Below, piece after piece: positions 29,541 through 49,852 of a DNA stretch of 54,153 nt; within the stretch, counting starts at the first letter, position 1, and every line of letters starts with the position of its first letter. The position numbers and the translations under genes were made by a program. The stretch lies in the NCBI GenBank assembly GCA_002401345.1, contig NVSU01000005.1, forward strand, positions 1-54,153, given 5' to 3'. The notes below the pieces were generated by a model. The model saw only the letters and a program-made list of their open reading frames with translations, did no database searches and was not told the DNA's origin. This DNA comes from Candidatus Wolfebacteria bacterium (GTDB taxonomy: Bacteria > Patescibacteriota > Minisyncoccia > Phycocordibacterales > NVSU01).

Positions 29541-32261
29541 TTAAAAATCAACTATTAAATTTCCTCCTTCTGCGCCAAATTTACTAAAGTGCATAGGATC
29601 TTTTTTTCCGGTCCAATTACCTCCCCATCCCCAACCCTCTGTTGTATTTGCAAATAGTTGCCAAAAAGGAGGATTTTGACCATCCATGTCTGTTTTTAGT
29701 TTTGTTTTAAATGGGTTTGTTTTTTGATTTATATCGAGTGCGAGTCCAAATGCATGTATAGACATTTTATCAGTTCCCCTAATAATACGACAACTGAAAC
29801 TCCCGATAGTATTTACCTTATAGTAATTATTGCCTCCCAAATTTTTCCACCTTTGATCTATTGCAGTTAAACTTTTAACTACACCTTTGTGTACAGTCAC
29901 TTGTTTTTCGAATAACGTAATGGTTTGCAAGTCTCCTCGTATGTCTGCACAATTATTACTTGTATTTGAGTTCAATAATACAGATGATCCATCTTTATTT
30001 ATTACTGCAAGTGATGTTCCTCTTGTAACACCAAACCCCGGTTCATTTTTTGGATCAATATTTATAAAGGCCTTTCTAATACCAAGATTCAAATTAACCA
30101 AGTCGGGATTTATAGTGAAGAGTATTGCAAAGGCACCGAGCGCAAGAAGAAGGCCTCCAATTGCTGATGTTATCCTCTTTTTCGCCTCACCCTTTGCAAG
30201 TATAGATTCTTCCATCATGTATTGGATTCCACCCATAACAATCATGACAACTGCGAGCACACCTGCTATTCCAATTAATAGTTTAAATATAAGTTCGAAA
30301 TATTTACCAAGCTTATCAGCAGATGTATCGATAGTTCCATCTGTACCAGGTAAGGGTGCTAAAAGAGTATACGGACCACTTAGATCAAATGTTATATCTC
30401 CAGGCAGGGGACCAATTTCGGGTGATTCGATTTTTTCTAAGGACCAATCCTGCCAACATCCACCTCCTAGAAGTGATACATCAGCTGAAGAGGGGTCGCA
30501 ATTATAGTTGAGTTCCCCATTTGGTTTTCCTTGAGATATGTATGTAGCAATAGGAGCTGGTCCTGTGACCTTAATATAGTATTGACACTCTGGACTCCCT
30601 GCTCTGTCACACTCGTCTTCTCCTGCAAGGAGACTTATAATTGTCTTTTCTAGAAAAGAACCCTTGTCTTCCGGTATTATTTTTATAATTCCATCATCGC
30701 CGATTGTATCATCTACAATGTTATCTCCAGCTGCAATAAATGTATCATCCTCCCATATTGAGACGCTTAATTCTTGTCCGACACAATTGATAGTTTCTAT
30801 CTCAAGATTGACTTTTGGATGGTTTGCATCATCAAAAAAAGTATCTTCGTTAACATGACTGGGGCTAAATTCAGCAGATACAACACTACATTGACCAGTC
30901 AATGCTGCATCAGGAATTTCATCAGGAGAGTTAACTTGTACACACTCACTCACGGCTGCGATGGTTATACCGTACGCACCACTAGTAACAATGTTTTCTA
31001 TAGCTGCCGAGCATTCATCTCTTGTATCAAATCCTCCTTCTGAGGTGATTTGCGAATTAAAATCTATTTTTTTAAACCACCATTTTAATCCTCCAATAAC
31101 TTTCCATCCAGTTCCACATAGACCATCACAATCGTACGATATAGTTCCATCAGCTTTTCGCTTAGAAGAAAATTCTTCAATACCGCTTCCTGTTATTTTT
31201 GCATAATATGATGCATCTGGATCAACAGATAAATCACCCTGGAAGTCTCCTGCCCTTAATTTTATTTCTAGTTTATTATTTAGAGGAACTTTGATATTTC
31301 CAATGGTTTTTGCAATATCATCATCTGAGTCATCGGTTTCATCAGTTTCATTATCTATTTCCCATAATCGAATAAATATCAACTCATCTTCACAATTGCG
31401 TGTCTCGATAGTGAGGAGAACTTCAGGCTGATTATCTTCATCCATGAAACTTGTTTTAGGGGGAGGGTTTGTGTCATCAGATGGAGTAAATGTTGCTGAT
31501 AAGATTTTACATACAGTAGTAGTGTCTGCGAGCGCATCGGTGAGTAAAGACAATACTATCCCTTCTCTGTCTCCACCAGTATTATTTCCAAGCAATTTAA
31601 AAAAATATGTTTTATTCGGGTTGAGATTTGTAATAGTTTCGCTAATATTTCCAGAGCCATTTCCGCGGGATATAAGATTGGTTGTGCTGGATGGAGTGTT
31701 GTTCTCATTAAATATTTGGGACCCAGATTTTATTGTTCCATATTCAAATGCTGTATCCACCCCGTCTTTTTTAAAGCCATTGTCACTCCAAAAACCATTT
31801 AATGTTGCAGAAGTTGTAGTTACATTTGTTGCTGAAAATGTTTTGATAATTGGAGGAGGTGCCAGTGTTACAAATTGATGCGGTGGGTCAACAAATATTT
31901 GTGCGGGTGAAATCGCATCATTTTTAACAGTGAAATAGTAGAGAGTGTCCGAGTCAAGTGCAGTTAGGTTTTTAGTTATAGGGATGCCTTGTGCAGCTAT
32001 GGAACCTTTAAATACAGAGGCTTTTTGAGTGAGCGAGGATTTGCTTGTTCCATAATATATATTTATATCTACATCAATTCCTCCTGATGGAAATAGATTA
32101 AAATTAATTCGTGCCGAATTATGAGTTTCTTCAGTTACTGACAGATTGATTATTTGCCCCTGCGCAAAAGCTGTAGAATGAGCCGCGAAAAAAAATACAA
32201 CCATCAGTGCTACGAGAAGAATAGTACGATATATGGTTGTCGGATGAAAAGAAAATCTCAT
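29541..32261 (-). CDS. Multidomain secreted/membrane protein: FN3-like modules, two Cys-containing repeats, a T4SS-pilin-like 2-TM module and an M15 (LAS-family) peptidase
   Basis: LLAPLPG...LIGIAGVLAVVMIVMGGIQYM...AIGGLLLALGAFAILFTINP resembles the CPR TrbC/VirB2-like pilin module. The C-terminal HAFGLALDIN...WGWGGNW...DPMHF resembles M15 / VanY-type metallopeptidases. Confidence 0.6.
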   Translation of the reverse strand: MRFSFHPTTIYRTILLVALMVVFFFAAHSTAFAQGQIINLSVTEETHNSARINFNLFPSGGIDVDINIYYGTSKSSLTQKASVFKGSIAAQGIPITKNLTALDSDTLYYFTVKNDAISPAQIFVDPPHQFVTLAPPPIIKTFSATNVTTTSATLNGFWSDNGFKKDGVDTAFEYGTIKSGSQIFNENNTPSSTTNLISRGNGSGNISETITNLNPNKTYFFKLLGNNTGGDREGIVLSLLTDALADTTTVCKILSATFTPSDDTNPPPKTSFMDEDNQPEVLLTIETRNCEDELIFIRLWEIDNETDETDDSDDDIAKTIGNIKVPLNNKLEIKLRAGDFQGDLSVDPDASYYAKITGSGIEEFSSKRKADGTISYDCDGLCGTGWKVIGGLKWWFKKIDFNSQITSEGGFDTRDECSAAIENIVTSGAYGITIAAVSECVQVNSPDEIPDAALTGQCSVVSAEFSPSHVNEDTFFDDANHPKVNLEIETINCVGQELSVSIWEDDTFIAAGDNIVDDTIGDDGIIKIIPEDKGSFLEKTIISLLAGEDECDRAGSPECQYYIKVTGPAPIATYISQGKPNGELNYNCDPSSADVSLLGGGCWQDWSLEKIESPEIGPLPGDITFDLSGPYTLLAPLPGTDGTIDTSADKLGKYFELIFKLLIGIAGVLAVVMIVMGGIQYMMEESILAKGEAKKRITSAIGGLLLALGAFAILFTINPDLVNLNLGIRKAFINIDPKNEPGFGVTRGTSLAVINKDGSSVLLNSNTSNNCADIRGDLQTITLFEKQVTVHKGVVKSLTAIDQRWKNLGGNNYYKVNTIGSFSCRIIRGTDKMSIHAFGLALDINQKTNPFKTKLKTDMDGQNPPFWQLFANTTEGWGWGGNWTGKKDPMHFSKFGAEGGNLIVDF

Positions 32262-32264
32262 ATA

Positions 32265-33260
32265 TTATCTATTGAGGAACATACTAAATAAAGATGAATC
32301 TGATTGGAAAAGTTTTGAAAGACTTTTTATACCTAATGAAATCTCTGCTACACCTCCTGTGTCTCGGTCAAATTGAAGTGACAGTACATTTTTTGTAGAC
32401 TGTGTTTGAGTTGTTTCATTATTGAGCTTCCAGGAATAAATGAAATCAGAGTCGACTGCATTTTTAGATGAGAAAAAGAATGGTTCTGCGACAATTGTCA
32501 CTTGATTTGTGCGCGGTGTAAAGCCTCTGTCGAGTGAAAAGGTATAATTTGTTCCTTCTAGTTCAGAGTCTTCATAAAAAAGAATTTGAGGAGAACGCAA
32601 TTGAATTGCGACTTGTCCTAATCCTTTTGAGCTTTGATTTAATCTTGAGACTTCAACCCCAATGGTCTCTACGTCGTCCAAATAGTCATTTTTAAATGTG
32701 TAACTTTTTCTGCCAAACCCCGAGCTATTTTGAATGTTCTGAAAATTCTTTTTCCAATTATAGACCAAGTCAGATGACTTGATTTGACTTGACCCTAGTG
32801 AGAGTGAAGGTAGTGCAACTACTTTTATTTGAGTTTCAGATGTAGGGAGGGCTTTTCCTTTATAAAATGGTGGCACATAAGAATCTATTGCTTCCCACAA
32901 AAGATCTACGCTCGTTGGCCTAATTGTTATCTGCTTTGTGATGAGCTTTCCTGTGCTCACTGTGATGGCGATATCTACAAGGGTAGTTGATCCCAGAGCA
33001 CCAGATTTTACCGTAAAACTTTTTCTACCGATACCTTGCAACTTTGTATTTCCGTCTACTTTCCATGTAATAGACGCCCTATTTAAATCAAAACTAAACG
33101 TCGAAACTGTAATGGAAACGTCTTCAAATGCATCAGGAGAGCTCGGGAAAAGAGATACTGCAACAGTACTGTCTTGAGTCTGTCCAAAGGAGACCAATGG
33201 CATTAATAATGCCAGTAGTACAAGTAGTGTATATATAGAGTTGTGTAGACGCATATTCAT
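32265..33260 (-). CDS. Secreted hypothetical protein
   Basis: 331 aa with a signal-like N-terminus, beta-rich. No family recognised. Confidence 0.5.
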   Translation of the reverse strand: MNMRLHNSIYTLLVLLALLMPLVSFGQTQDSTVAVSLFPSSPDAFEDVSITVSTFSFDLNRASITWKVDGNTKLQGIGRKSFTVKSGALGSTTLVDIAITVSTGKLITKQITIRPTSVDLLWEAIDSYVPPFYKGKALPTSETQIKVVALPSLSLGSSQIKSSDLVYNWKKNFQNIQNSSGFGRKSYTFKNDYLDDVETIGVEVSRLNQSSKGLGQVAIQLRSPQILFYEDSELEGTNYTFSLDRGFTPRTNQVTIVAEPFFFSSKNAVDSDFIYSWKLNNETTQTQSTKNVLSLQFDRDTGGVAEISLGIKSLSKLFQSDSSLFSMFLNR

Positions 33261-33263
33261 TAT

Positions 33264-33941
33264 TTATTCTAGTTCTTTGTGAGCCTCTTCTTCCAGTTTC
33301 TTTATTTCTTCTTCCAGTATTTCAATTTTTTTGATTTCATCTTGAAGTTTTGTGTCTATGTGTTGCAGATCTTTGATTTCTTTTATGTCTTGTCCGAGCT
33401 CTTCCTTTAATTTTTTTAATGTGTCGAGTCCGGCGCGAACATCACTCTCATCATTTTGAATTTTAGATAGTATTTTATCGTGAAGTGCTTGTAGGTCATC
33501 CACTTTCTTCTTAAAGTTCGTTAGTTGTATTTCGGGGATACTCGTATCCGCTATAGACCCTATCTCTTTTTCTACTTGTGCCTCTAATTCTTTTATTTCA
33601 GTAGCAGTATCCTCTCCAGTCCGCTTCGACGAAGCTTCAGCGAGGCGAGTTGATGGAGGGGTCGCTACCTCTTCACTGGGTACAGGCTGTGTGGCAGTTT
33701 CAGGGATAATTATGTTATCAGCGTCTCCGCCAGCCCGCTTCGACTCAGCGAGGCGAGCTGGTGGATGAGTCTCTTCTGCTTTATCAGGTGTTGGTTGTGC
33801 AGGTGGTGGTACATTTGCATCAGCCTGCTCAGATGGCGCAGTTGTTTCTTTGGATGGTTGATTTTCATCAACAAATTCTACGTCAGGCGTAGTATCGGCA
33901 GTTGTATCAGTTGGAATTATTTTATTGTTATCATCATTCAT
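33264..33941 (-). CDS. Acidic Pro-rich / coiled-coil protein carrying two in-frame palindromic elements
   Basis: 225 aa, no signal peptide. PPARLAESKRAGG and PPSTRLAEASSKRTGE are encoded by the GC-rich palindromes. The C-terminal heptad-like EEEIKKLEEE is shared with the VirB4 tail. Confidence 0.5.
   Translation of the reverse strand: MNDDNNKIIPTDTTADTTPDVEFVDENQPSKETTAPSEQADANVPPPAQPTPDKAEETHPPARLAESKRAGGDADNIIIPETATQPVPSEEVATPPSTRLAEASSKRTGEDTATEIKELEAQVEKEIGSIADTSIPEIQLTNFKKKVDDLQALHDKILSKIQNDESDVRAGLDTLKKLKEELGQDIKEIKDLQHIDTKLQDEIKKIEILEEEIKKLEEEAHKELE
33614..33658. repeat. In-frame GC-rich palindromic element, copy with degenerate outer arms
   Basis: Core ccgcttcgacgaagcttcagcgaggcga is identical to the reverse complement of the core at 34239-34266. 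Confidence 0.8.
33727..33764. repeat. In-frame GC-rich palindromic element, 38-nt variant
   Basis: ccgccagc-ccgcttcgactcagcgaggcga-gctggtgg. Lacks the central 6 nt (gaagct) relative to the 44-nt form. Confidence 0.8.
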
Positions 33942-34007
33942 TATATTGTAAGGTTATTTTTTAATACTATTATTATATCAGTTTAATTCTTAAGAAAATA
34001 ATACGGA

Positions 34008-36179
34008 TTAAAGGTTTTTAAATTCTTCTTCAAGTGTTTTAATTTCATCCTCTATTTGCTGTTTGGTTGTTTCCATTTGTGCTATGCGACCTTTTTTCTT
34101 TTGTGGAGTGGGTTTCTTCTTTATGGGCGCTATTTCAGTGTCTGCGACTGGTATGGGTGTAGGTTGTTCGGGTGGTGCACTTTCTTCTGCGGTGACGGGT
34201 TCTTCTGTAATTTCAGGTTCTTTTTCTTCTCCGCCAGCTCGCCTCGCTGAAGCTTCGTCGAAGCGGGCTGGCGGATTTTCTTCCCTAGGTGGTGTTTCTA
34301 TTTCAGGGACAATAAGTTCCGGTTCCTCGAGTTCTTCTGCAGCTTTTGCTTCTGCGAGCTCCCTTTTAGCTTTTTGAATAGTGAGGAGTTGAGATGGATC
34401 TGAAGTGATAATTTGATCCTCAGTATATGAGGCGATGATTTTTATTGCGACGTGTTTCAATCCAGCAAAGAAAATTCCCTCACCAATATCAGATTCCAAT
34501 AGAAGAAACTTTTCTTCATCAGTGAGACTAAAGGTCTTTTGAAGAAGATCAATTGCACTAGGAGATTGTTTCAAGAGCAATTGAAGTGAAGAGTTTGTAA
34601 CAATTGGAACTCCATAAGGTGACTTCATAAAGTCCCCTACGTCCTGCGTAATAGTTGCGAGACCTAAAAAATATTTTCGGCCACGTTTTGCAATACTATA
34701 GAGGAACGATGCGGTGTCTTCTGATTTCATCATCCACCATGCCTCATCAACTACAAGTAGTCTTTTTTTCAAATTTTTTCGTACTGCATTCCAAATATAG
34801 TGAGTAATAATGTACATCGCTGCTGGCTTCAGCTCGTCTTCCATATCTCTCACAGAGAATACGATAAATTTTTTATTTATATCAATATTAGTTGGTTGGT
34901 TTATGAACTGAGCCCATGATCCCTTTGTATATTTACTGAGTCGCTGAACAATTGACTCACTTCCCTCCATTCCTGAGAGTACAAGTTCAAAATCTGAAAG
35001 CAGAGGGGGCTCAATGGTTGCAAAGTCTGACTCAGGTGTAATATCTTTAAGTGCATAGGTTTCGGAAATAGCTCGATCAATAATAGAGTCTTCTTCAGGA
35101 GTAAGACCACCAAGCATGATTCTAAAGAGCCCTACAAGTTGAATAATATTTGACCGTAATACGTCGGAAGGTGTCTCGTCTTCTCGTGGTGGTGGTAGGT
35201 CAAAGGGATTTATATGGTGCTGTGAAGACAGTGACATATTGAAATATCGGCCCCCCACAGCCTCAACAAGATAGGTGTACTCTTTCTCAGGGTCAATCAC
35301 AATCACATCTGTATCAAACATAAGTGATCTCAGTATCTCTAGTTTTGTTGCATAGCTTTTTCCTGCACCTGACTTTGCAAAGATGATCGAATTGTAATTT
35401 TCTAATGAAAATCTGTCAAAAATAACTAAACTCGCATTATGTCTATTTACTCCATAAAGAATTCCTTTATCTGAGGTGAGGTCAAATGATACAAATGGGA
35501 AAATACTCGACAGGGGTTCAGAATTTAGCTTTTGGTGCACCTTCAGTAAGTCTGTGCCTGTGGGAATCACACTCTTAAATCCTTCTTCTTGTTGGAAAAG
35601 TGCAGGTTTAATATATACAAGCTTTGCATCAAGGATTGATTTGATTTCATTTTCTATCTTAAAGAGTTCGGTTTCGTCATCTGCATAAATAGTTATATAG
35701 AGTCCCACTTCAAATATTTTTTGCTGAGCTTGTTGCAATGTATCACGCAATGATTCCAGGTCTTGGAATGCAGTATCAAGAATCGGATCTCGTACAAGTC
35801 CTCGCGCTCGTCGTGCATTGATCTGACTTTGCACTTCAGCAACTTTCTTCTGAAATTGTTTTAATATTTTTGCAGTATCAACTGGGTGTATAAAAATTGA
35901 AATATCGAAAATTTTATCAAGATTTATGATTGGAGAAAACCAATTATCTGTTAAAAAACGAGGATATGAAATAACAAAAAAGGTTCGAGCAATTTTTTCT
36001 CCTAGATTGAGAGATTTTGCATCTATCTTCAGTGCTGAAGGTGCAATAATATCCTGAAGCTCGAGCTTTGCTGCCTCATAAATATCTTCTGGAAGCACAG
36101 GAAGTACTGTAGGTTCTGGAGCGTGCACTCCTCCCTTTTTCTTTCCTATTTTTTTAAAAATGTTGTCGAATAGTGCCAT
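34008..36179 (-). CDS. virB4: VirB4-family T4SS ATPase (C-terminal two-thirds of a Gram-positive-type VirB4) with a disordered / coiled-coil tail
   Basis: IAPSALKI..RTFFVISYPRFL, Walker A KSGAGKSY, Walker B LLVVDEAW. Start set at ATG 36179 because the track start at 36200 is a GTG inside an inverted-repeat element. Confidence 0.85.
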   Translation of the reverse strand: MALFDNIFKKIGKKKGGVHAPEPTVLPVLPEDIYEAAKLELQDIIAPSALKIDAKSLNLGEKIARTFFVISYPRFLTDNWFSPIINLDKIFDISIFIHPVDTAKILKQFQKKVAEVQSQINARRARGLVRDPILDTAFQDLESLRDTLQQAQQKIFEVGLYITIYADDETELFKIENEIKSILDAKLVYIKPALFQQEEGFKSVIPTGTDLLKVHQKLNSEPLSSIFPFVSFDLTSDKGILYGVNRHNASLVIFDRFSLENYNSIIFAKSGAGKSYATKLEILRSLMFDTDVIVIDPEKEYTYLVEAVGGRYFNMSLSSQHHINPFDLPPPREDETPSDVLRSNIIQLVGLFRIMLGGLTPEEDSIIDRAISETYALKDITPESDFATIEPPLLSDFELVLSGMEGSESIVQRLSKYTKGSWAQFINQPTNIDINKKFIVFSVRDMEDELKPAAMYIITHYIWNAVRKNLKKRLLVVDEAWWMMKSEDTASFLYSIAKRGRKYFLGLATITQDVGDFMKSPYGVPIVTNSSLQLLLKQSPSAIDLLQKTFSLTDEEKFLLLESDIGEGIFFAGLKHVAIKIIASYTEDQIITSDPSQLLTIQKAKRELAEAKAAEELEEPELIVPEIETPPREENPPARFDEASARRAGGEEKEPEITEEPVTAEESAPPEQPTPIPVADTEIAPIKKKPTPQKKKGRIAQMETTKQQIEDEIKTLEEEFKNL
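34231..34274. repeat. In-frame GC-rich palindromic element, full 44-nt form
   Basis: ccgccagctcgcctcgctgaagcttcgtcgaagcgggctggcgg folds into a stem of about 22 bp with 2 mismatches. 32 of 44 nt are G/C by my count. Encodes NPPARFDEASARRAGGEEK. Confidence 0.85.
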
Positions 36180-36189
36180 AAATATTTTA

Positions 36190-36320
36190 GCATCTAGCAC
36201 CTAGGCACTAGCATCTAGTTTCGTTATTAATAAATGTAACATTTTTATAATTTTATTATTGATTTCTTTCATATTGAATTTAATTTTAAGGCTAGTTGCC
36301 AGTCGCTAGTGCCTAGGTGC
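36190..36320. repeat. Decayed four-helix-bundle cassette (inverted-repeat-bounded relic)
   Basis: Perfect 16-nt inverted repeat gcacctaggcactagc (36197-36212) / gctagtgcctaggtgc (36305-36320). The interior keeps a 23-codon remnant MKEINNKIIKMLHLLITKLDASA, which resembles the last helix of four-helix-bundle proteins. Confidence 0.65.
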
Positions 36321-36325
36321 TTTTA

Positions 36326-36967
36326 CTATTCTTCAAACTTTACAGTCCCAGTAGGATCACCGGGGTTAAATGTCTTATAAAAGAGCTCCACAACCTCTTC
36401 TGTGCCCAATTGAACACTTCGCACACCCATTCGTGCCAGTCCACCCTGGATGACCCCCACTCGTTGTTCGAGTTGTGATTGTTTTTCTGCAAAATCAATT
36501 CCCTCTTGTACCTTTGTTTTTTTCTTAGATGAAAAAATACTTGTGAGTCCCTTAAGTCCTGAAGCGGGACCAAGTGCGGGTGCAGTATAGGGAACGACTA
36601 TAATAAAACTTTTTGTCATAATATTACGCGACTCTGTGAAGTTTCTAATGAATTGTATATATTCACGAGTTTGAATTTTTAACAAAGGTTCTACCTGCTC
36701 TTTCATTCTATTTTCAAGAAGTATGATGTAGGGGCGGATGTCGAGTTTTCGTGATTGAACAACTATTTGTGTTGAGAAATCCAATGAATTCAAAAATGAC
36801 TGGAATTGACGAATTGTTGCATTCTGTTCATCAAGGGACTTTAATGAAAGATTTATTGATGAAGCCATGAGAACTGCTCGGAGTCCCCCATCTTTTAAAA
36901 CCACAATCCCATTTCGGATTTCTTTTATTGGGACAAAATTTTGAGTTGCTCGTGCTGCAAGTGCCAT
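36326..36967 (-). CDS. Protein resembling the N-terminal segment of Gram-positive (Tn916 Orf16 / CD1110-type) VirB4
   Basis: TQNFVPIKEIRNGIVVLKDGGLRAVLMASSINLSLKSLDEQ..FQSFLNSLDFSTQIVVQS... and ..MGVRSVQLGTEEVVELFYKTFNP follow the pattern I recall for the first ~220 aa of that family. No TM, no NTPase motif. Confidence 0.5.
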   Translation of the reverse strand: MALAARATQNFVPIKEIRNGIVVLKDGGLRAVLMASSINLSLKSLDEQNATIRQFQSFLNSLDFSTQIVVQSRKLDIRPYIILLENRMKEQVEPLLKIQTREYIQFIRNFTESRNIMTKSFIIVVPYTAPALGPASGLKGLTSIFSSKKKTKVQEGIDFAEKQSQLEQRVGVIQGGLARMGVRSVQLGTEEVVELFYKTFNPGDPTGTVKFEE

Positions 36968-36973
36968 ATATAT

Positions 36974-37413
36974 GAGTTAAGAGTTAAGAATAATGATTAA
37001 TGACTGAAAGTTTTAGATTTTTTAATTAATCCATTGATAAGTTTATGGGTTGTTACTGTTCTGTTTGCAATATCATTAGATCCTTTTTGATCTATGAACC
37101 CTAAATCCTTCGTGATTAATATTTGATTCTGAATTTCTGTAAGTGATCCAAGAGCTATCAAATAGAACCTTATTTTATCAGGATAAGAACCCCGACTAAA
37201 CCCTTCAGCTAAATTGGATGTTATTGAAACAGAGGCCCTTTTCATTTGTGAAGTTAGTCCAAATTGTTCTTCTCTTGGAAATTTTATTGTCATTTCATAC
37301 ATAATCATAACTAATTTATGGCCTTCTTTCCATGCATAAAGATCAGTAAAAGATTTAATTTTATTTTCTTCCTTATTCATACTTCATTATTCCTTAATCT
37401 TTATTCTTTATTG
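36974..37413 (-). mobile_element. Intact four-helix-bundle mini-cassette with imperfect inverted-repeat flanks
   Basis: ttaagaataatg (36984-36995) versus cattattccttaa (37385-37397), bracketing the 127-aa gene. The flanks overlap the stop codons of the cassette gene and of the upstream prgI-like gene. Confidence 0.6.
36997..37380 (-). CDS. Four-helix-bundle protein (23S rRNA intervening-sequence protein family)
   Basis: FTDLYAWKEGHKL, FPREEQFGLTSQMKRASVSITSNLAEGFSR, LIALGSLTEIQNQ. Confidence 0.8.
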   Translation of the reverse strand: MNKEENKIKSFTDLYAWKEGHKLVMIMYEMTIKFPREEQFGLTSQMKRASVSITSNLAEGFSRGSYPDKIRFYLIALGSLTEIQNQILITKDLGFIDQKGSNDIANRTVTTHKLINGLIKKSKTFSH

Positions 37414-37827
37414 TTCTTTTTCTTTCATATCCAACACATCAAGACTCCATGAAATATCTTTTAATCTGCCTTCAGAGAGCCGAGGAATATACGCTTTCTC
37501 TGATATTTCCTTTTCTTCTGGTGTAGGTTGTGTCGCAGCCTTCTTTTTTTTGCTCTTTTTCCATATATAGAGTTTTCCCTGAAAAAGGTATTTTACGTAG
37601 GCTTCAAGAATGTATATAAACGGTTTATTGTTTATCTTATAGAACGTAAGTGCCAAAGAAAGTGATACCACAGGAATGATTATAAGTATGGCAATAAAAT
37701 TTGGAAGTACTTTGAATGCAACAAAGGATATTCCCGCACCCCCAATCAAATAGACAAACTGTTTGAACGTAAATGGTCCAAAGATTTTGTCTTCTATATC
37801 AATAAATTGTGGAACTCTAAATCTCAT
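37408..37827 (-). CDS. PrgI-family (VirB3-like) T4SS membrane protein
   Basis: VPQFIDIEDKIFGPFTFKQFVYLIGGAGISFVAF followed by a second TM helix. Confidence 0.7.
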   Translation of the reverse strand: MRFRVPQFIDIEDKIFGPFTFKQFVYLIGGAGISFVAFKVLPNFIAILIIIPVVSLSLALTFYKINNKPFIYILEAYVKYLFQGKLYIWKKSKKKKAATQPTPEEKEISEKAYIPRLSEGRLKDISWSLDVLDMKEKEQ

Positions 37828-37840
37828 ATATTAGCCTCTC

Positions 37841-38005
37841 GCACCTAGGCACTGGCACCTAGCATGCCTACGACAGGTAGCATTAATTTATTAATAAACG
37901 AATTTAACATTTTTATAATTTTATTGTTGATTTCTTTCATATTTAATATGTACATTGCAAATTTTTAATGATTGAGCTAGTTGCTAGGAGTTAATGACTA
38001 GGTGC
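37841..38005. repeat. Second decayed four-helix-bundle cassette
   Basis: gcacctaggcactggcacctagc / gctagttgctaggagttaatgactaggtgc flanks. A 40-nt core (aacatttttataattttattgttgatttctttcatatt) is nearly identical to 36239-36277. Remnant ORF MKEINNKIIKMLNSFINKLMLPVVGMLGASA. Confidence 0.65.
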
Positions 38006-38010
38006 TTTTA

Positions 38011-38802
38011 CTATTCTTGAATTCTTTCTCTGTAGGGATCTTGCGTTGGTCCTGTGTCTGAATAATCATGAGTCTCTCTTTTTAGTGTAAACGGCTCTTT
38101 TAATTTTTTCTCGACAATACTCTCTTTTGGAGTTGCTAATAGGGGTTCTTCCGTATGTGTTGGTATCTCTTTTTTTAAATCTTGTTGTAATGGAACGGTC
38201 GTCTGTTGTGGTAGTGGAACATATGAATTTTTCTTTGATTGTATTTTGACTCCAGAGGATTCCAATATTTTTTCATCTTTTGTGTCTATGGTCGGTATAT
38301 TTTTTTGAAGAGTAATGTCCTCTTGTGTCTCAGTCGCAACAATATCTATACCCGTTTTTTTTAATACCCCAATGTCCTTTGAAGGGAGATGCGATGGAGT
38401 AGTTGAAGGGAAATCTTCTTCCAATAATCGTTCAATATCTTCATCAGTGATATCAATTTCTGGTTTTTTCTGTGGAACTTCTGGTTCACCATGGAGATGT
38501 TTAAGTGCACTTCTAATTTTTTCAAATACTTGTGTGTTTATGTCATTAACAATCTGATCAACCTGTGTTGAAGAGAGGGATAGTGTACGCTTAAGATTTT
38601 TTGCAAAGTCTTTTGGATGGGACAGGCCGAGAATTATTAAATTACTTTCATAGACAAGTTTTCCAATATCAGAAACTGTAAGAGTGTGTTTCTTTCCTAT
38701 AGAGAGGATTTTTTCTCCCACACTTGCATCAAGAACCGCAGATCGTACATCATCTGGGAGCTTGCTAAATTTTTCAGTTATTTCTTTGCTTGAAAGTTTC
38801 AT
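38011..38802 (-). CDS. Hypothetical protein (no signal peptide)
   Basis: 263 aa. The N-domain ..ILSIGKKHTLTVSDIGKLVYESNLIILGLSHPKDFAKNL.. and C-terminal DPYRE resemble a domain I recall from other CPR hypothetical proteins. Confidence 0.45.
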   Translation of the reverse strand: MKLSSKEITEKFSKLPDDVRSAVLDASVGEKILSIGKKHTLTVSDIGKLVYESNLIILGLSHPKDFAKNLKRTLSLSSTQVDQIVNDINTQVFEKIRSALKHLHGEPEVPQKKPEIDITDEDIERLLEEDFPSTTPSHLPSKDIGVLKKTGIDIVATETQEDITLQKNIPTIDTKDEKILESSGVKIQSKKNSYVPLPQQTTVPLQQDLKKEIPTHTEEPLLATPKESIVEKKLKEPFTLKRETHDYSDTGPTQDPYRERIQE

Positions 38803-38825
38803 ATTATAACGTGCATTAGTGATTA

Positions 38826-41285
38826 TTATTTCTTAGCTGAGTCTCCACTTTTTTTTGCTGAACCAATTTTTTCCTGGAGTTTTTCCTTTTGATCCTTCTT
38901 CTTTTCTATTTTCTCTTCTAACTTCTCTTGCGTGTCAATTATCGTTTCCATGCCTTTTATTTCTTGTTCTGCTCTCAGTATTTCCACCCTTGTTTCTGTC
39001 ATCTTTTGTTTGTCCCTTTCGTCGCCAGTGTTTTTGTATGCTACCTCGATAGTTTGTAATTGATTGTTTAATTCTGTTAATCGAGTTTGTTTTTCTGAAA
39101 CATCATAATTTATTTGCTCTTTTATTTGGGCTCTGGTGAGTGTATGTAGCTCCTCTGGTTTAATGTTATTTCGAAGCGCAGCATTAGTCTTAATTTTAGT
39201 GAGTATCTTATTTCCTTCTTTAACATCTATGTCAATATCTTCAATGTCATTGTCTAATTTTTTAATTGCCTTTTTGTAAGATTCCACTTTGTCAGTTGCA
39301 AGACCTTTTCTAAGTTCTAAGGCTGCACGTAAGTCACCTTGTGCAGCAAACGCAGCAGCCGGACCAGTAGGTGAAACCTTGCTAATAACTCCCAAGTTTT
39401 TAAGTAGAACCTGTGATGTACCAGCTTCAAGCGTATTAGCATAGTCAGTTTGACGTTGTTCATTAATTTTCTTTGAAGTGCTGACTTCAGGTGATCCAGT
39501 GATGGCTTCTCCCTTTACCGTTAATGGTTCCCCTTTTGTATAGGCATCTTTAAATTCTTTTTCATTAAAGATTTGCCCCTTGCCTTCAGTTTCTTCACGA
39601 GCATCATCTCTCATGTCTCCATAGGCTTTTTCCCAATTTCTGGCATTTTGATCTTGTCGAGCAGCCTCAAGTCCTTTCATTTTTATTTGTTCAAATAGAT
39701 CCATTCGTTCCTTCCTCCTTTCTTCGACACGTCCTTCATATCCACCTACTCCCGCGGCAGCTCCAAGACCAACTCCCTGCAGTACTCGATTATCAAGATT
39801 GATTCCACCCGCTCCAGCAGCTTCTGAAACCCCAGGAGCTTGGCGTATATCAAAACTTGCACCTCGTAGATAATTTGCTAATCGTAGCTTAGTCCGTGCA
39901 CCAAATTGTCCTTCAGCAGCAGCTTGTTGAAGTCCTTTACTCTCAGCTGCACCAGCAGCAGCTAGACCAGCTGTACTACGTAGGGCGAGGCCTCCTACTC
40001 CTGCAGCTGCACCAAGGGCAGCACCTCCAACGGCACCGACTTTTTTAGCTGCAGCTGTTACTACCTTACCGGCTTCACCTGCAAGATTTTCTGCAAGTTT
40101 TTTTGCCATGATAAGGAGCATGGCAATAATAGAGAGCGGGAATACTATATTTAATACTGCTTGAACTGTCGATAGATTCTCTCCCTTGCCAAATGCACTT
40201 CCAATAATATCAGTCTCAAGGAACATTACGATTAAAAAGAGGAAGAAAATAAAGACAGGAGCTAGAAAAGAAAGCTTGAGGAGATTTCCCCACCATTTTT
40301 GTTGAAAGTCACCTATTTGCGGGATGGCGTATGAGATAAATGCGAAAGGAGCAGAGATCATTACAATCCATAATCCAAGTGTACGGGCAATAAAAAGAAT
40401 TGCGACAGTAAAGAATACCCAAATGGCGACTATATTTATACCTGCAGCAAGTAAAGACACAAGTGAGAAAAAGGATGCATAGGCATCTCTACTCAAGCCC
40501 CTCGCTGTTAATATGCTTGAGGTAGGATCATTACTCACACGTTCAATGTTTGGCCCTGACGCAACTTGTGCAAAAAGTTTTTGTGGTTCAAATTTTGATA
40601 TGACGGCAATAGAAATAGACTTTGCTCCGCTGACTTTTACAAATTCTGCAGGACCGGTGACTTCTATCGCATTATAGAAAATCCTCGCAACGATATTTGA
40701 GCTATCAACAACAACTTTGGTGAAAAAGAGACTAAAGTTTATAAGAAGCGCGACTACCACAACATTTGCAATGGTTCTTTTTGTGTCAGCACCAGCGATG
40801 CCCAATATTGTTTTTATTGCTACAAATACAAGTATGAATATAAAGAGAATATTGGAGATATCCCTTGTGATCTTCCATCCTTCTGTAATAAATGAGGTGC
40901 CAGTATATGATGCACTATCAAGAGTGTAGGCAAGAGTAAAGTCCAAAAATTTTCCAATAAGCGCGAGAATAAATGCAGTAGGAACAAAAAGAATGTAGTA
41001 GATCACCTGCGCAATACATCCCATAACACCTCCTTGAGTGTCTTCACCAAATAAGTCACATGCGGGAAGTACGTTTTCATCTTTCGCAGGGTCAGTGTCA
41101 TCAAATTCACCTGTATGAGTGGCATATGCGACATTGGTGTGTACTGTGGGAGTGAGAGAAGTTGGGTGAATTGAAACAGAGACCGGAGAAAAGAAACCAA
41201 AGATAAATACCACAGCAAATACAAGAATGGCAAATTTTTTACCAAGTGTACTCTTATGTGTAGTTTTATTTGTTTTATTGTTCAT
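38826..41285 (-). CDS. Polytopic membrane protein, VirB6/TrbL (Tn916 Orf15)-like, with an Ala/Gly-rich segment and a K/E-rich coiled-coil tail
   Basis: 819 aa. Signal/TM, then about 7 hydrophobic helices. Position relative to prgI/virB4 fits the channel subunit. No sequence motif proof. Confidence 0.5.
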   Translation of the reverse strand: MNNKTNKTTHKSTLGKKFAILVFAVVFIFGFFSPVSVSIHPTSLTPTVHTNVAYATHTGEFDDTDPAKDENVLPACDLFGEDTQGGVMGCIAQVIYYILFVPTAFILALIGKFLDFTLAYTLDSASYTGTSFITEGWKITRDISNILFIFILVFVAIKTILGIAGADTKRTIANVVVVALLINFSLFFTKVVVDSSNIVARIFYNAIEVTGPAEFVKVSGAKSISIAVISKFEPQKLFAQVASGPNIERVSNDPTSSILTARGLSRDAYASFFSLVSLLAAGINIVAIWVFFTVAILFIARTLGLWIVMISAPFAFISYAIPQIGDFQQKWWGNLLKLSFLAPVFIFFLFLIVMFLETDIIGSAFGKGENLSTVQAVLNIVFPLSIIAMLLIMAKKLAENLAGEAGKVVTAAAKKVGAVGGAALGAAAGVGGLALRSTAGLAAAGAAESKGLQQAAAEGQFGARTKLRLANYLRGASFDIRQAPGVSEAAGAGGINLDNRVLQGVGLGAAAGVGGYEGRVEERRKERMDLFEQIKMKGLEAARQDQNARNWEKAYGDMRDDAREETEGKGQIFNEKEFKDAYTKGEPLTVKGEAITGSPEVSTSKKINEQRQTDYANTLEAGTSQVLLKNLGVISKVSPTGPAAAFAAQGDLRAALELRKGLATDKVESYKKAIKKLDNDIEDIDIDVKEGNKILTKIKTNAALRNNIKPEELHTLTRAQIKEQINYDVSEKQTRLTELNNQLQTIEVAYKNTGDERDKQKMTETRVEILRAEQEIKGMETIIDTQEKLEEKIEKKKDQKEKLQEKIGSAKKSGDSAKK

Positions 41286-41319
41286 TTTGTCTACTAACTA
41301 TTTGCTACTTTCTGTGTAT

Positions 41320-41357
41320 CCCGACGTAAAGTCGGGACCCCGACTGTAGCGTCGGGG
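41320..41357. repeat. Tandem GC-rich hairpins (REP-like)
   Basis: cccgac-gtaaa-gtcggg, then a, then ccccgac-tgtagc-gtcgggg, in the intergenic spacer of the operon. Confidence 0.7.
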
Positions 41358-41365
41358 CTATTCTC

Positions 41366-43642
41366 CTAATATATCCGTATTTCGTCTTCCCATCTCGAAA
41401 AATTTTGACTAGTAGACAAGCTTATCTCTAGTGTATCGAGGCTGTCTTGATCTGTTATTCCAGATGTATCAGGCTTGTCATTTGGAAGGAATGTACATCC
41501 GAATCCTGGAATAGGATTGAAACAACCTCCAACTCCAGGATAGTCTCTTCGCTCTGCGGGATATATATTTGGATTGTAATTTGGATTAACTGGAGCAGTT
41601 TGAGCAGTACATTGTAAGTTAAGAAACTCAATATATGTGTTATCTGTGCCTAGATTTTCTCTGTCAGCTATTACATTTTTTATGGCTGCAGTGTTTGCGA
41701 GTTGTGGTGCGATTCTGATAAATCGAGTTCTGAGCAGATTAAATTCTTCTACTTGAGTTTCATCAGCTATTCCATCATTCACAAGTGTTTGAACTTCAGC
41801 CAATAGGAATTCCAATTTGATACGTTCTCTGTTGGCAAGTGTTATTTTTTGAGAGTTTACACTTTGTACTTGATCATATTCCTCTATTCTTCTCACCTCA
41901 GTAATAGATTCTTCTACAAAGATAAATCCACCATCAAATATGTTTTGAGTAGAAAATCTATTAGCTATGAGTTGTGCATAGTCTCTAAGGAACGTATTGT
42001 ATGCAGTTGTAATGTTTATAATAGCTTGCTGTTTTTTCTCCGTTATTGTTTGTCCAATAATAGGGATGACTTCCCATCCACTAAAATTCCCATTAATAGC
42101 ACTAGCAATTTCTTGTGTTCGTTCAATAGTTCTCACTTGCGCTCTTTGAAACCATGTAGGAGTTGGTCCAGGAATACAATAATCGAGTGAACGTAGACCA
42201 GCTCCAAGTACACCTAGTTCAGTGTTGTAGGTGTTCAATTCAGTAACATAATCAAGTTGATTTTGAATAAGTGTTGGCAGTTCGTCTACAAGACTCAGGG
42301 TTTCTTCTGGAGCTGTGCCAAGGTGATCTATAATACCTTGATCGTCAAAGCTGGTTCCGAATACATGTCCCCCAAAGGTACCTGAGCTTGTTGTGACAGC
42401 ACCGTCATCTGTAAATTCGATTTGAGAAAGTCCTTCTTGAATAAGTTGATTTAGAAGTGCATCAATCATGGCTGAAATTACTTCATTGAGCTCATCAGCA
42501 AGCTCAAGCTGATTTTGTTTTGAACCGAGCGTAATATTTGCTTGATGTGCAATTGTTTGTCCGGGTGTTGCATTAGCCCAGCGTGCACAGTTTTGATCAT
42601 CCCAATCAATATTTGGATTTGTGACATTGTCTTTGTCTAATACACAGAGTTTTGTAGAAAGAAATCCATTACCTTGATTAAGTTCATCTCGGAATTGTTC
42701 AGCAAGAGAAAGTCGTGTTCCTCTGGTTCTGCGAAGATTTTCTTGGGCAGTTATGAAGCGAAAGCCAATCGGGTTGTTTTGTGGCAGAAGTGTCATCGCA
42801 AGCCATGCACCCCAGCCCCCCACTCTAAAGTCTGCATTAAAATCAGTATGATTAAATCCCTCTAAGAGAACTTCATTTAAGGTAAAGCGTGCATTTCTCT
42901 CGAATTGAAACGTTATAGAATTTTTTAATGATGCGGCAACCTCAGCGCCAAATGGATAATTGATAGGATCAAACCCAATTACGCTTACCAATCCATTTAC
43001 TTCTCTTTTGTACAGATTTTCAAAAAAAGATTGAGGATTTTCTAAAAATAATGGTTGTCCTTGAAAACCATTGTTGATCCATGCGATGGTCTGCACTCCA
43101 AGCTCTCGTACGAGTTCTTTTGCTGCAAAGAATGCAATCGCATCCAAACATGTTTCCTTATTATTTGCTGCTACTTCTTCCTTTTGTATTTTTTTGTTTA
43201 TTTTTTTGATGTTTTTAGCTATTTGATTACCTGTTCGTTGTGCTGCTATTGCCCCTGCGTCATGTGTGGGTACGCTTGTACCGGCAATATTAGTTACAGT
43301 TCCAGCAAGATTTGTTCCTATTATTCCTGTAAGACTTTCATCAATTCCGAGTTCTTCAATTTCATCTACAGGGAACACTGGTAGATCATCACCTCCAAAA
43401 AAATCTTTTATACCCCCTATACCACCTGCACATCCTAGAATAGTAGTTGCAAGACCGCCAAGTGAGACATTTCCCAACACACCAGTTCCACCACCAAATG
43501 TACCAGCTCCACCAGCTCCAAATGTACTTATAGATTGAGCATGCACAGGATATGACGGAACAAGTAATAGAGATGGAACAAGTATTCCTATCATGAAAAT
43601 AAATGAAGTAATTTTTTTTGTTTGTGTTTTTATTTTTATCAT
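41366..43642 (-). CDS. Large secreted hypothetical protein
   Basis: 758 aa. Signal peptide (..SYPVHA-Q), Gly-rich N-terminal segment, no recognised domain. Confidence 0.5.
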   Translation of the reverse strand: MIKIKTQTKKITSFIFMIGILVPSLLLVPSYPVHAQSISTFGAGGAGTFGGGTGVLGNVSLGGLATTILGCAGGIGGIKDFFGGDDLPVFPVDEIEELGIDESLTGIIGTNLAGTVTNIAGTSVPTHDAGAIAAQRTGNQIAKNIKKINKKIQKEEVAANNKETCLDAIAFFAAKELVRELGVQTIAWINNGFQGQPLFLENPQSFFENLYKREVNGLVSVIGFDPINYPFGAEVAASLKNSITFQFERNARFTLNEVLLEGFNHTDFNADFRVGGWGAWLAMTLLPQNNPIGFRFITAQENLRRTRGTRLSLAEQFRDELNQGNGFLSTKLCVLDKDNVTNPNIDWDDQNCARWANATPGQTIAHQANITLGSKQNQLELADELNEVISAMIDALLNQLIQEGLSQIEFTDDGAVTTSSGTFGGHVFGTSFDDQGIIDHLGTAPEETLSLVDELPTLIQNQLDYVTELNTYNTELGVLGAGLRSLDYCIPGPTPTWFQRAQVRTIERTQEIASAINGNFSGWEVIPIIGQTITEKKQQAIINITTAYNTFLRDYAQLIANRFSTQNIFDGGFIFVEESITEVRRIEEYDQVQSVNSQKITLANRERIKLEFLLAEVQTLVNDGIADETQVEEFNLLRTRFIRIAPQLANTAAIKNVIADRENLGTDNTYIEFLNLQCTAQTAPVNPNYNPNIYPAERRDYPGVGGCFNPIPGFGCTFLPNDKPDTSGITDQDSLDTLEISLSTSQNFSRWEDEIRIY

Positions 43643-45020: not shown

Positions 45021-45899
45021 CTAAGAATTGATTCCTTTTGTGAGACATTTCCAGTCGTTCAAAGTAAGATTTTCAGCCCGAGAATTATCTGGTAATGCAC
45101 ATGCACTCAGAATTTCTTTTTTATCTGTCTGAATGGATGACTTTTCGGTCTCATTAAAAAGAGGTTTAATGTTGCTCATGAGTAATTTTCGTTTATGTGA
45201 GAATCCAGCCTTCAGAACTTTAAAAAAATCTGTTTCGTTTATGGTATCAAAAAAATCTCGTGATATTTTGCGTACAGAAAGTATAGCTGAGTCTACTTTT
45301 GGGGCAGGAGAGAATAGTCGAGCAGGTACTTTTTCTACATACGTTGGCATTCCATATGCCTTTACACTTATTGAGAGAATGCTTTCCCTAAATCGCCTTT
45401 CGGGCGATCGGGCGACTGCGCCCGCTGGGCGCGGTTTAGCCTTTTTTCTTCGTTTTTCTATCCCAACAATTCGACGGGCAACTTCTTTTTGAACAAGTAT
45501 GGTAATAATTTCTGGTTGATGTTCTGTTTCGAGGAATTTTTTTAATATTGCCCCTGTAATGTAATACGGTATATTGGCCACTATTTTATAGGGGTTTTTA
45601 TCCAAATCAGCACTTTTAGGTTCAAAATCGAGAATATCTCCCTCGAGTAGGGTAAGTGTCCCTTTGTCTATCTCTTTTTTGAACTTTTCTTTTAAATATT
45701 CGACTAGTCTAGTGTCTTTTTCAATTGCGATAATTTTTTTTGCATGTGTCAGAAGTTTTTCTGTGAGGATTCCCTTCCCGGGACCGATTTCTAACACAAT
45801 ATCGTTCTCATTTATATTAGATGCATTCAACATAGACATCACAACTTTCTGTGATTTTAGGAAATTTTGTCCAAAAGTTTTGTTTGGTCTGAGGTTCAT
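45021..45899 (-). CDS. rsmA: 16S rRNA (adenine1518/1519-N6)-dimethyltransferase RsmA/KsgA with an internal insertion
   Basis: FGQNFL, VLEIGPGKGILTEKL, VANIPYYITG, VQKEVARRI, PKVDSAIL. An extra basic segment KRRKKAKPRPAGAVARSPERRFRES follows VQKEVARRIVG. Confidence 0.9.
   Translation of the reverse strand: MNLRPNKTFGQNFLKSQKVVMSMLNASNINENDIVLEIGPGKGILTEKLLTHAKKIIAIEKDTRLVEYLKEKFKKEIDKGTLTLLEGDILDFEPKSADLDKNPYKIVANIPYYITGAILKKFLETEHQPEIITILVQKEVARRIVGIEKRRKKAKPRPAGAVARSPERRFRESILSISVKAYGMPTYVEKVPARLFSPAPKVDSAILSVRKISRDFFDTINETDFFKVLKAGFSHKRKLLMSNIKPLFNETEKSSIQTDKKEILSACALPDNSRAENLTLNDWKCLTKGINS
45392..45441. repeat. GC-rich multi-hairpin insertion inside rsmA
   Basis: atcgcc-tttcg-ggcgat and cgggcg-actg-cgcccg (alternative gcgccc-gct-gggcgc). 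36 of 50 nt are G/C by my count, in an AT-rich gene. Confidence 0.7.
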
Positions 45900-46023
45900 C
45901 CCGTTAGAGATAGGAAATGATTACATTTCCGTGTAACTCATTCCTATGATCATTATTGTTAATTATTTTGTCTACTACTCTTCCTCCCATATACATAACA
46001 TTGCGATCTCTAACGGGATTCAT
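45898..46023 (-). repeat. Second copy of the MNPV cassette, abutting the rsmA start codon
   Basis: atcccgttagagat (45898-45911) / atctctaacgggat (46006-46019). On the minus strand ...TAA CGGG ATG(rsmA). Internal hairpin ggaaatg-taat-catttcc. Confidence 0.8.
45904..46023 (-). CDS. 39-codon small ORF (MNPV cassette peptide) immediately upstream of rsmA
   Basis: MNPVRDRNVMYMGGRVVDKIINNNDHRNELHGNVIISYL. Same length and same termini as the ruvC-linked copy. The longer 64-aa track ORF is probably an artefactual extension. Confidence 0.4.
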   Translation of the reverse strand: MNPVRDRNVMYMGGRVVDKIINNNDHRNELHGNVIISYL

Positions 46024-49118: not shown

Positions 49119-49141
49119 ATAGTTATTTTACCACTCTTTTT
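49071..49141. repeat. Direct repeat DR1 (comM 5' end plus upstream 23 nt)
   Basis: 71 nt, repeated at 49771-49841 exactly 700 nt away, with 5 substitutions and no indel. Confidence 0.9.
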
Positions 49142-49191
49142 TGTGCATAAAAAATAAATTGAAATTGATTTGAAAGACATATTGGTTAGTT

Positions 49192-49722: not shown

Positions 49723-49818
49723 CTAACCTCTTATATTAAAAATGAAGGAGGTCCAACCTCCTTCATTGCTCTTTAATGCGTTTGTTTGAGCCGAATAAAC
49801 CCGAGAAAAGTTACTCAT
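49723..49818 (-). pseudogene. Truncated duplicate of the comM 5' end
   Basis: MSNFSRVYSAQTNALK is identical to ComM residues 1-16. It then runs into the terminator hairpin and stops (31 codons). Confidence 0.65.
49741..49768 (-). terminator. Rho-independent terminator after the comM fragment
   Basis: aatgaaggaggt-ccaa-cctccttcatt. Followed by TTTTT on the minus strand. Confidence 0.65.
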
Positions 49819-49841
49819 ATAGTTATTTTACCACTCTTTTT
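49771..49841. repeat. Direct repeat DR2
   Basis: See DR1. All 5 differences fall at synonymous positions of the comM reading frame. Confidence 0.9.
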
Positions 49842-49852
49842 GTTTTTAAAAT

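Follow-up and report, generated by a model that had tools for sequence, protein, structure and literature searches.

Proteins of the four-helix-bundle (4HB) family annotated as 23S rRNA IVS protein form a very large group to which, to our knowledge, no function has been assigned in thirty years. Discussion has mostly treated them as an oddity of rRNA genes or, in retroelements, as the Avd partner. Intervening sequences (IVSs) of 23S rRNA may lack an open reading frame (ORF), as in the Salmonella, Yersinia and Campylobacter types. Others carry a 4HB ORF (S23p / 23S_rRNA_IVP), for example in Leptospira and Coxiella burnetii, and rRNA IVSs are excised by RNase III (PMC4990558). ORFs of this type have also been reported in rRNA insertions of bacteria of the candidate phyla radiation (PMC11270868). 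The present work concerns a 54,153-nt stretch of a Candidatus Wolfebacteria genome (contig NVSU01000005.1; hereafter the window, which represents our coverage of this genome). It includes an operon with an intact 4HB cassette and, at two neighbouring gene junctions, two short elements, E1 and E2, which are probably internally deleted relics of an IVS-type 4HB cassette whose parent belonged to a subtype with CTAG-rich arms. The stem-enclosed cassette known from rRNA is found here to live in protein-coding operons, in sense orientation and exactly between cistrons. Arm type varies together with protein subtype, neighbouring junctions retain ORF-less hairpins, and E1 and E2, the only copies found with a piece of the gene, link the cassette and the ORF-less hairpin forms. 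These elements provide a concrete and testable system for addressing cassette mobility, the role of the 4HB protein and the cutting or stabilising of operon mRNAs by hairpins in minimally regulated organisms. In our incomplete search of the literature on the 4HB family and inverted repeats we met no account of 4HB cassettes in operons, which does not prove that none exists.

In several ways the operon cassettes resemble 23S rRNA IVSs with a 4HB ORF: a PF05635 gene is enclosed by inverted repeats which form a long stem, it lies in a host transcript in sense orientation, and its distribution is sporadic with signs of horizontal spread. In contrast to the rRNA IVSs, they sit in a protein-coding operon, precisely between a stop and a start codon, and their arms are tandem short repeats which provide stop codons; their excision by RNase III is putative. 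As with the ORF-less 23S rRNA IVSs, gene-less hairpins of about 90–150 nt coexist with ORF-bearing forms (PMC4990558). Unlike these, E1 and E2 lie in mRNA and retain a 3′ gene fragment; since this is still recognisable, they illustrate a route from the ORF-bearing to the ORF-less form.

Other hairpin elements also provide comparisons. The repetitive extragenic palindromic (REP) sequences and bacterial interspersed mosaic elements (BIMEs) of enterobacteria are intercistronic palindromes whose stem-loops are able to stabilise upstream mRNA. REPs are 20–40 nt long, highly repeated genome-wide and linked to RAYT transposases. E1 and E2 are likewise stem-loops between cistrons; the size, the repetition and the RAYT link of REPs were not seen here. 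Correia/NEMIS elements of Neisseria, whose hairpins are RNase III targets and alter mRNA fate (PMC2649163), and bacterial transposable elements of the miniature inverted-repeat kind (MITEs; PMC10969869) share with E1 and E2 a length of 100–160 nt, inverted ends, co-transcription with neighbouring genes and sites which are filled or empty in different strains. In contrast to both, E1 and E2 show no TA or other target duplication and are few, concentrated in one operon of the window; and, unlike that of MITEs, their parent element encodes a 4HB protein rather than a transposase. Elements of the E1/E2 type would work like Correia or enterobacterial repetitive intergenic consensus (ERIC)-type hairpin repeats, minus the target duplication, the high copy number and the transposase-bearing parent. 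Finally, the Avd proteins of diversity-generating retroelements (PMC10053308) have the same fold and family (PF05635 / bAvd-like) and, like the operon protein, are basic. No reverse transcriptase domain was found among the ten operon proteins scanned (29541–43642), however, and there is no template/variable repeat pair in the window, so that the 4HB protein is not acting as a retroelement Avd here.

All the elements described in an earlier reading of this DNA, the original prediction, are present where it had placed them. Gene X, E2, PrgI, the intact 4HB gene, a TraC-like VirB4 N-domain gene, E1 and the VirB4 ATPase gene follow one another in this order along the minus strand. E1 (36180..36325, minus strand, 146 nt) occupies the junction between the TraC-like and ATPase genes, and E2 (37828..38010, minus strand, 183 nt) that between X and PrgI. 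Both are composed of CTAG-rich inverted arms enclosing an AT-rich core, and they align over their full length with 81% identity and two indels (17 and 24 nt). The aligned region starts at AAGAATAGTAAAAG-GCACCTAG, a segment holding the final two codons of the upstream gene and its TAG stop, and ends at CCTAGGTGC.AGA.GCTAA.ATAT, just ahead of the next ATG. Beyond each arm, the flank common to the two elements amounts to 14 nt on the 5′ side (AAGAATAGTAAAAG) and about 15 nt on the 3′ side. The nearly identical stretch of some 40 nt which had been noticed in the two cores proves to be identical at 38 of 39 positions (36237–36275 in E1; 37905–37943 in E2).

The arms themselves are unequally preserved. 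In E1, the 5′ arm (36305..36321, minus strand) forms a perfect 17-bp stem with the 3′ arm (36196..36212, minus strand), and the fold, at -41.7 kcal/mol (z -6.4), was not equalled by any of 200 shuffles. In E2, the 5′ arm (37982..38005, minus strand) is degraded to GCACCTAGTCATTAACTCCTAGCA, and the 24-nt stem with the 3′ arm (37841..37864, minus strand) retains 79% complementarity (z -2.0). The long stems proposed for both spacers are thus intact in E1 and have decayed, through the 5′ arm, in E2. Within the first 27 nt of E1 there are stops in all three frames (GAA GAA TAG; ...ACC TAG; ...CAC TAG), and from the end of the 3′ arm to the next ATG there are 13–17 nt in E1 and E2, compared with 3–5 nt in other genomes. 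The arm 12-mer GCACCTAGGCAC and its near copies occur in the window only in the E1 and E2 spacers, save for one spurious match with two mismatches; their copy number in the window is two, both in one operon. The identity of the core (38/39) exceeds that of the whole elements (81%) in spite of the decayed E2 arms, a difference to which a post hoc estimate assigns a chance probability of about 0.3%; the core may have undergone recent conversion or be under constraint.

What remains of a gene in E1 and E2 points to a particular 4HB subfamily. Its members are 119 aa long, end in KMLNKLISQLEPSA and carry CTAG/CCTAG arms. The remnant ORF of E1, MKEINNKIIKMLHLLITKLDASA (36201..36272, minus strand), terminates at a TAG held by the 3′ arm, and that of E2, MKEINNKIIKMLNSFINKLMLPVVGMLGASA (37845..37940, minus strand), also stops inside its 3′ arm. 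This is the geometry of the CTAG-type 4HB gene, whose TAG stop lies within the 3′ arm (GCCTAG), and the E1 tail KMLHLLITKLDASA has the same length as the KMLNKLISQLEPSA of the subfamily up to this TAG. CTAG- and GCTAA-type 4HB proteins have the ending ...LLEEVMKMLNKLISQLEPSA or ...EEVMKMLNVMINKLSS; the E1 ORF ends in ...NKIIKMLHLLITKLDASA and that of E2 in ...NKIIKMLNSFINKL...GASA. A hidden Markov model (HMM) of the CTAG/GCTAA-arm subfamily (120 members, 119 positions) was run without filters on the 1473 six-frame peptides of the window. The intact 4HB protein headed the ranking, followed by the E1 ORF (9.9 bits) and then the E2 ORF (7.9 bits), with the best decoy at 4.0 bits. Both ORFs align at the C-terminal end of the model, the open frame of E1 from 36305 at positions 87–118 of 119 and E2 at positions 97–115. 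Among 305 peptides from 68 junction spacers of 80 species, only E1 and E2 match the subfamily HMM (E 0.012 and 0.048), and shuffled spacers gave nothing comparable. The remnants, which had been taken for the last helix of a 4HB protein, do correspond to its C-terminal end, but they cover about the last 28–32 codons, more than one helix. They are gene fragments rather than members of the PF05635/TIGR02436 family.

Nucleotide sequence and synteny lead to the same parent. From five CTAG cassettes a DNA profile was constructed which covers ~105 nt at the end of the gene and ~22 nt downstream (the 3′ arm); its best match on either strand of the window is E1 (36250–36193, minus strand; E 2.6e-4), and E2 ranks third. 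In five of five sampled members of the subfamily, picked from its match list mostly for many or long contigs, the 119-aa gene lies 17–18 nt upstream of PrgI, which is the position of E2. Together with the rank of the two ORFs in the HMM search, these results uphold the idea that E1 and E2 are gene-less relatives of 4HB cassettes. From sequence, arm type, the position of the stop within the arm and synteny, E2 would be the decayed resident 4HB cassette of the X/PrgI junction and E1 its copy.

Several observations weigh against this account. The protein similarity is short, and the HMMER E-values are borderline when the whole window serves as the database (0.056 and 0.23). The two elements are not mutually independent and represent one evolutionary event, not two, and the CTAG-type cassettes used for comparison come from genomes other than the source genome. 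Codon-degenerate DNA patterns of the core do find the window and its sister contigs and were not found elsewhere in GTDB genomes or JGI metagenomes, so that the intermediate state, deleted and with a gene fragment, is seen only in this lineage. The changes in the E2 5′ arm are uncompensated. As to the mechanism, folding of the stems is equal or better on the antisense strand (22 versus 16 hairpins, 11 versus 7 cassettes), so that nothing points specifically to the sense RNA rather than to the DNA; the strand asymmetry of G.U pairs shows no bias and lends no support to selection on sense RNA. Finally, neither a transposase nor a target-site duplication nor any other mobility function came to light.

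The intact cassette (36968..37407, minus strand) is composed of a 5′ arm and leader (37381–37407), the gene (36997–37380) and a 3′ arm (36968–36996) which overlaps the last codons of the gene. As predicted, the gene encodes a 127-aa protein of the rRNA-IVS family, with scores well above the cut-offs for PF05635 (E 2.3e-32, 111.8 bits, cut-off 33.8) and TIGR02436 (E 1.2e-30, 105.9 bits, cut-off 24), and lies between PrgI and the VirB4 N-domain ORF. The protein has a pI of 9.6 and a C-terminus of ...HKLINGLIKKSK... The imperfect inverted repeats which had been said to flank the gene are also there, as 30-nt arms with 73% complementarity (duplex -16.4 kcal/mol). Folding, proposed as a check on all three regions, gives a clear signal for E1; that for E2 is weak, as is, on its own, that for the arm duplex of the intact cassette (z -1.8). 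These arms are AT-rich GAATAA/TTATTC repeats, a type which also flanks 4HB relatives of 65–69% identity in unrelated operons of other candidate-phyla genomes. Both arms and C-terminus differ from those of E1 and E2, and the intact cassette is an independent insertion of a subtype other than the E1/E2 parent. The original prediction that three consecutive junctions harbour one element family in different stages of decay therefore stands for the class of element and fails for the descent, E1 and E2 (CTAG arms) not being decayed copies of their GAATAA-arm neighbour. The neighbouring subfamily had been considered as a possible parent and was negative in three tests: hmmsearch --max of the remnant peptides against it yields 1.5 bits, hhalign aligns 8 columns with 0.4% probability, and tblastn with the intact 4HB protein finds no match at E1 or E2. 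A profile check of the remnant peptides, as had been suggested, is thus negative for this subfamily and for Pfam and NCBIfam, and for the CTAG-arm subfamily it ranks them directly after the intact protein.

To place these elements in a wider context, we compared the homologous operon in 80 species (GTDB representatives, the 80 best matches; loci are labelled L followed by a number, and the statistics ignore kinship). In L005–L008 the three junctions measure 17, 38 and 4 nt, and the median gap in the 80 representatives is 9 nt for PrgI/TraC and 12 nt for TraC/VirB4. Because these junctions are tight, E1 (146 nt), the 4HB cassette (440 nt from PrgI to TraC) and E2 (183 nt) are insertions with respect to the usual state. 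Spacers of at least 40 nt nevertheless occur at 20 to 31 of the 70–79 scored junctions, a quarter to nearly half depending on the junction, and many of them form hairpins. Their arms belong to several families: CCTAG/CTTAGG heptad repeats (L034, L087, L094, L106, L113), GCTAA/AGCTTAT repeats (L040), AT-rich ACTTTATAACTTT repeats (L047, L054, L064, L077, L080, L100, L101) and TCCCGTTAGAAGC...GCTTCTAACGGG abutting the ATG (L044, L053, L060, L082, L085). A 4HB gene is present in the operon at 11 of the 80 loci, always co-directional with it: nine lie directly upstream of PrgI, one at TraC/VirB4 and one further upstream. The arms of these cassettes form duplexes of -32 to -48 kcal/mol (z -5 to -8), and their complementarity is type-specific, since pairing the 5′ arm of one type with the 3′ arm of another gives background energies. 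At four loci (L034, L087, L040, L106) the 4HB-gene arms share their repeat type with ORF-less hairpins at PrgI/TraC and TraC/VirB4. The resulting order in L106, namely X, 4HB cassette, PrgI, hairpin, TraC, hairpin and VirB4, is the architecture of the window, and it is found at all four. Long spacers (at least 45 nt) at other junctions accompany 9 of the 11 4HB loci and 26 of the 69 loci without the gene (Fisher p = 0.008, uncorrected for phylogeny); when hairpins are scored by a strict criterion, they are not significantly associated with 4HB presence (p = 0.22, also uncorrected).

These figures leave some room for the reverse order of events. Hairpins might have been there earlier, favoured by host selection as punctuation of the operon (sites for processing or stability), and 4HB genes might have lodged in their loops later, E1 and E2 being hairpins which captured a gene fragment. 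Hairpin spacers are indeed commoner than 4HB genes and most of them, in the 68 spacers from the 80 species, show no trace of a gene, E1 and E2 being the sole carriers of a gene fragment found; ORF-less and ORF-bearing IVSs also both exist in rRNA. We nevertheless regard this order as unlikely: the 3′ arm extends over the final 5–6 codons of the 4HB gene, stop included, and the arm type follows the protein subfamily. Furthermore, the 3′ gene fragments of E1 and E2 keep the right placement and reading frame with respect to the arm, which fits a deletion better than a capture.

A lineage-specific miniature inverted-repeat or REP-like element unrelated to 4HB, whose ORFs resemble the 4HB end by chance in AT-rich sequence, would account for the small size, the terminal inverted arms and the intergenic position of E1 and E2. 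It would also account for the failure of their peptides to match Pfam or NCBIfam at E values up to 10, for the absence of any match between a two-peptide profile and 1.84 billion representative proteins, and for the lack of significant similarity to the neighbouring 4HB subfamily, and several unrelated hairpin families do occupy the same junctions in other genomes. Such an origin nevertheless appears quite improbable, since it would leave to coincidence the DNA profile match (E 2.6e-4), the score of both ORFs above all decoys of the 4HB HMM in register to the end of the model, the stop codon within the 3′ arm as in real cassettes, arms of the same CTAG repeat type, the location of E2 at the exact site of the subfamily gene in relatives and a copy number of just two per 54 kb, both in one operon. 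That the core encodes a functional small protein, either a 23–31-aa amphipathic peptide on the operon strand or an opposite-strand hydrophobic peptide (...NIFIILLLISFI...) resembling a type I toxin, is very improbable: although conservation in the core far exceeds that elsewhere in the element, the length of the 24-nt indel is divisible by three and the sole core substitution is, by reading of the sequences, synonymous in both frames, neither the 1.84 billion proteins nor DNA-pattern searches of genomes and metagenomes supplied a homologue, the best DNA alignment of E1 and E2 shifts frame past residue 12, the opposite-strand peptide has no start codon in E1, and no ribosome-binding motif precedes the ATG.

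If E1 and E2 are deletion relics, their history may be outlined as follows. The parent would have been a cassette of the CTAG-arm subtype, of the kind located just upstream of PrgI in many Nomurabacteria, and a deletion would have removed roughly its first 88 codons, leaving the 5′ arm, the last 28–32 codons and the 3′ arm. Because E1 and E2 share the boundary between 5′ arm and gene remnant, this deletion probably preceded the duplication, and the already deleted unit would then have occupied a second junction, between the TraC-like and VirB4 ATPase genes. The flank shared beyond the arms suggests copying by recombination or conversion rather than a clean transposition bounded by terminal repeats. 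The ...GAATAG ending of gene X agrees with the conserved one of X in relatives, ...CCTGA(A/G)TAG; from this and the shared flank we infer that E1 is the copy and E2 the original, a little flank having been carried along by recombination or conversion.

The 4HB cassettes more generally look mobile, to judge from comparison of their sequences. Hosts with cassettes of different types are as similar in TraC (80.0% identity) as hosts with cassettes of the same type (79.6%), and 4HB identity, which falls from 83% within a type to 41% between types, is uncorrelated with TraC identity (r = 0.02). The nearest relatives of the intact 4HB protein of the window sit in unrelated operons. L111 and L112 are 97.2% identical and have an identical 4HB protein; L111 carries a 100-nt hairpin of the AT type (L111 3304–3405) at the PrgI stop, which the insertion replaces, giving a new C-terminus ...KEGGSS followed by a stop. 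The cassette at the L111 locus is of the CTAG type, so that hairpin type and cassette type can be mixed. A target-site duplication is not visible at E1, E2 or the L111 insertion. Since the cassette 3′ arm overlaps the end of the gene and the arm type tracks the protein subfamily, gene and arms appear to travel as a unit. A broader proposal, which we put forward only tentatively, is that the 4HB cassettes might form a distinct class of promoterless mobile gene cassette homing to operon stop/start junctions in candidate-phyla bacteria and, by extension, to rRNA helices. The type-specific arms would be the cis-acting sites, the basic 4HB protein the trans-acting factor, and the ORF-less hairpins, E1 and E2 among them, non-autonomous derivatives which can still be copied. 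If true, the 23S rRNA IVS protein family, long without an explanation, would thereby gain a function.

Insertion at these junctions could affect the operon transcript in several ways. The cassette may be viewed as a promoterless 4HB gene of ~360 nt with two complementary arms, directed with the operon and placed exactly between a stop and the next start codon, and its arms would base-pair within the polycistronic transcript, like those of 23S rRNA IVSs. The stems of E1 (about 18–25 bp) and of intact cassettes (20–30 bp) would be long enough to serve as RNase III substrates, and cleavage would cut the operon mRNA at the junction; Correia elements provide a precedent for RNase III cutting of hairpins in mRNAs (PMC2649163). 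We give about even odds to such processing of E1 and the intact cassettes. Alternatively, the stems could buffer the upstream cistron against 3′ exonucleases, an activity which would be present given the PNPase gene in the window. The CTAG-rich arm would supply TAG stops in three frames and so terminate the upstream gene cleanly, and the element would end a few nt ahead of the next ATG; with both properties, insertion may be nearly harmless. E2, with its decayed stem, is most likely a neutral relic. Promoter and terminator scans of the window gave nothing above shuffled expectation at the elements. The single promoter-like site in E2 is on the antisense strand and its spacing differs in E1, and the scan detected no intrinsic terminator at E1, E2 or the cassette, where the loops measure 90–140 nt and no U-run follows on the operon strand.

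Gene X (38011..38802, minus strand, 263 aa) is the upstream neighbour of E2, and its C-terminus ...DPYRERIQE corresponds to the conserved ...DPYRE.PE end which precedes 4HB cassettes in L034, L087, L048 and L077. PrgI (37408..37827, minus strand) is VirB3-like and matches PF12666 (E 7e-10). VirB4 in this clade is encoded by two genes, a TraC-like N-domain ORF of ~213 aa (here 36326..36967, minus strand, 213 aa) and an ATPase (34008..36179, minus strand, 723 aa, with its true start at the ATG at 36179). The possibility that E1 had split a single virB4 gene was considered and rejected, because the N-domain ORF is a separate gene in relatives: it has ~7,900 homologues, and all 120 among the matches listed are 211–235 aa long. 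The other neighbours in the window are chromosomal housekeeping genes (KsgA, PNPase, a ComM-like ATPase, an M23 peptidase). The operon has its closest public relatives in Candidatus Nomurabacteria / Paceibacterota genomes of the candidate phyla radiation, and identical sequence occurs in contigs from ENA, Logan and JGI, with the core matches of E1 and E2 at the same positions in all three. An Rfam scan of the window returned no family and no rRNA; the elements lie between protein-coding genes, outside any rRNA gene.

Some further features of the related operons may be recorded. L004, the closest relative (75% TraC identity), has a 329-nt, strongly structured ORF-less PrgI/TraC spacer (4672–5000; -93.8 kcal/mol) in which no 4HB remnant was detected, and a 32-nt CTAG-repeat mini-spacer at its TraC/VirB4 junction. 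GC-rich and very stable spacers of an unrelated kind occur in L022 (3344–3500) and at the junction upstream of PrgI in L091 (-69 and -64 kcal/mol, respectively), and in L102–L105 a BrnT toxin / CopG antitoxin pair (2680–3290) lies in the operon two genes upstream of the 4HB cassette.

The window also includes a second family of inverted repeats (17671–17806 and 45898–46019, with related arms at 1602–1761), whose arms, ATCCCGTTAGAGAT, enclose loops of ~85–95 nt and one of which abuts a start codon (...CTCTAACGGG followed by ATG). A related type, TCCCGTTAGAAGC...GCTTCTAACGGG directly before the ATG, fills the PrgI/TraC or TraC/VirB4 junction in the five loci listed above; no 4HB remnant was detected in these spacers, the scan having covered those of the other species. 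GC-rich near-palindromes of ~43 nt lie in frame within two adjacent genes, at 33616–33658 and 33726–33765 in a 225-aa ORF (33264–33941) and at 34229–34275 in the VirB4 ATPase, near its C-terminus (tail). Their translation is PPARLAE(A)S(S)KRAGG / PPARFDEASARRAGG, either strand reading the same peptide, and they resemble in-frame palindromic insertions of the Rickettsia RPE kind; a regular-expression search of the 80 related loci found none. A motif of ~44 nt is present in four copies (10074–10117, 11763–11806, 12674–12717, 17593–17636) which, read on the minus strand, come close to a consensus promoter (TTGACA, ~16 nt, TATAAT); this suggests that the genome uses canonical promoters of the sigma-70 type. 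Lastly, an 88-nt direct repeat with 85% identity (49071–49158 and 49771–49858, 700 nt apart) has one copy over the start of the ComM-like gene (47580–49118) and the other at a site upstream.

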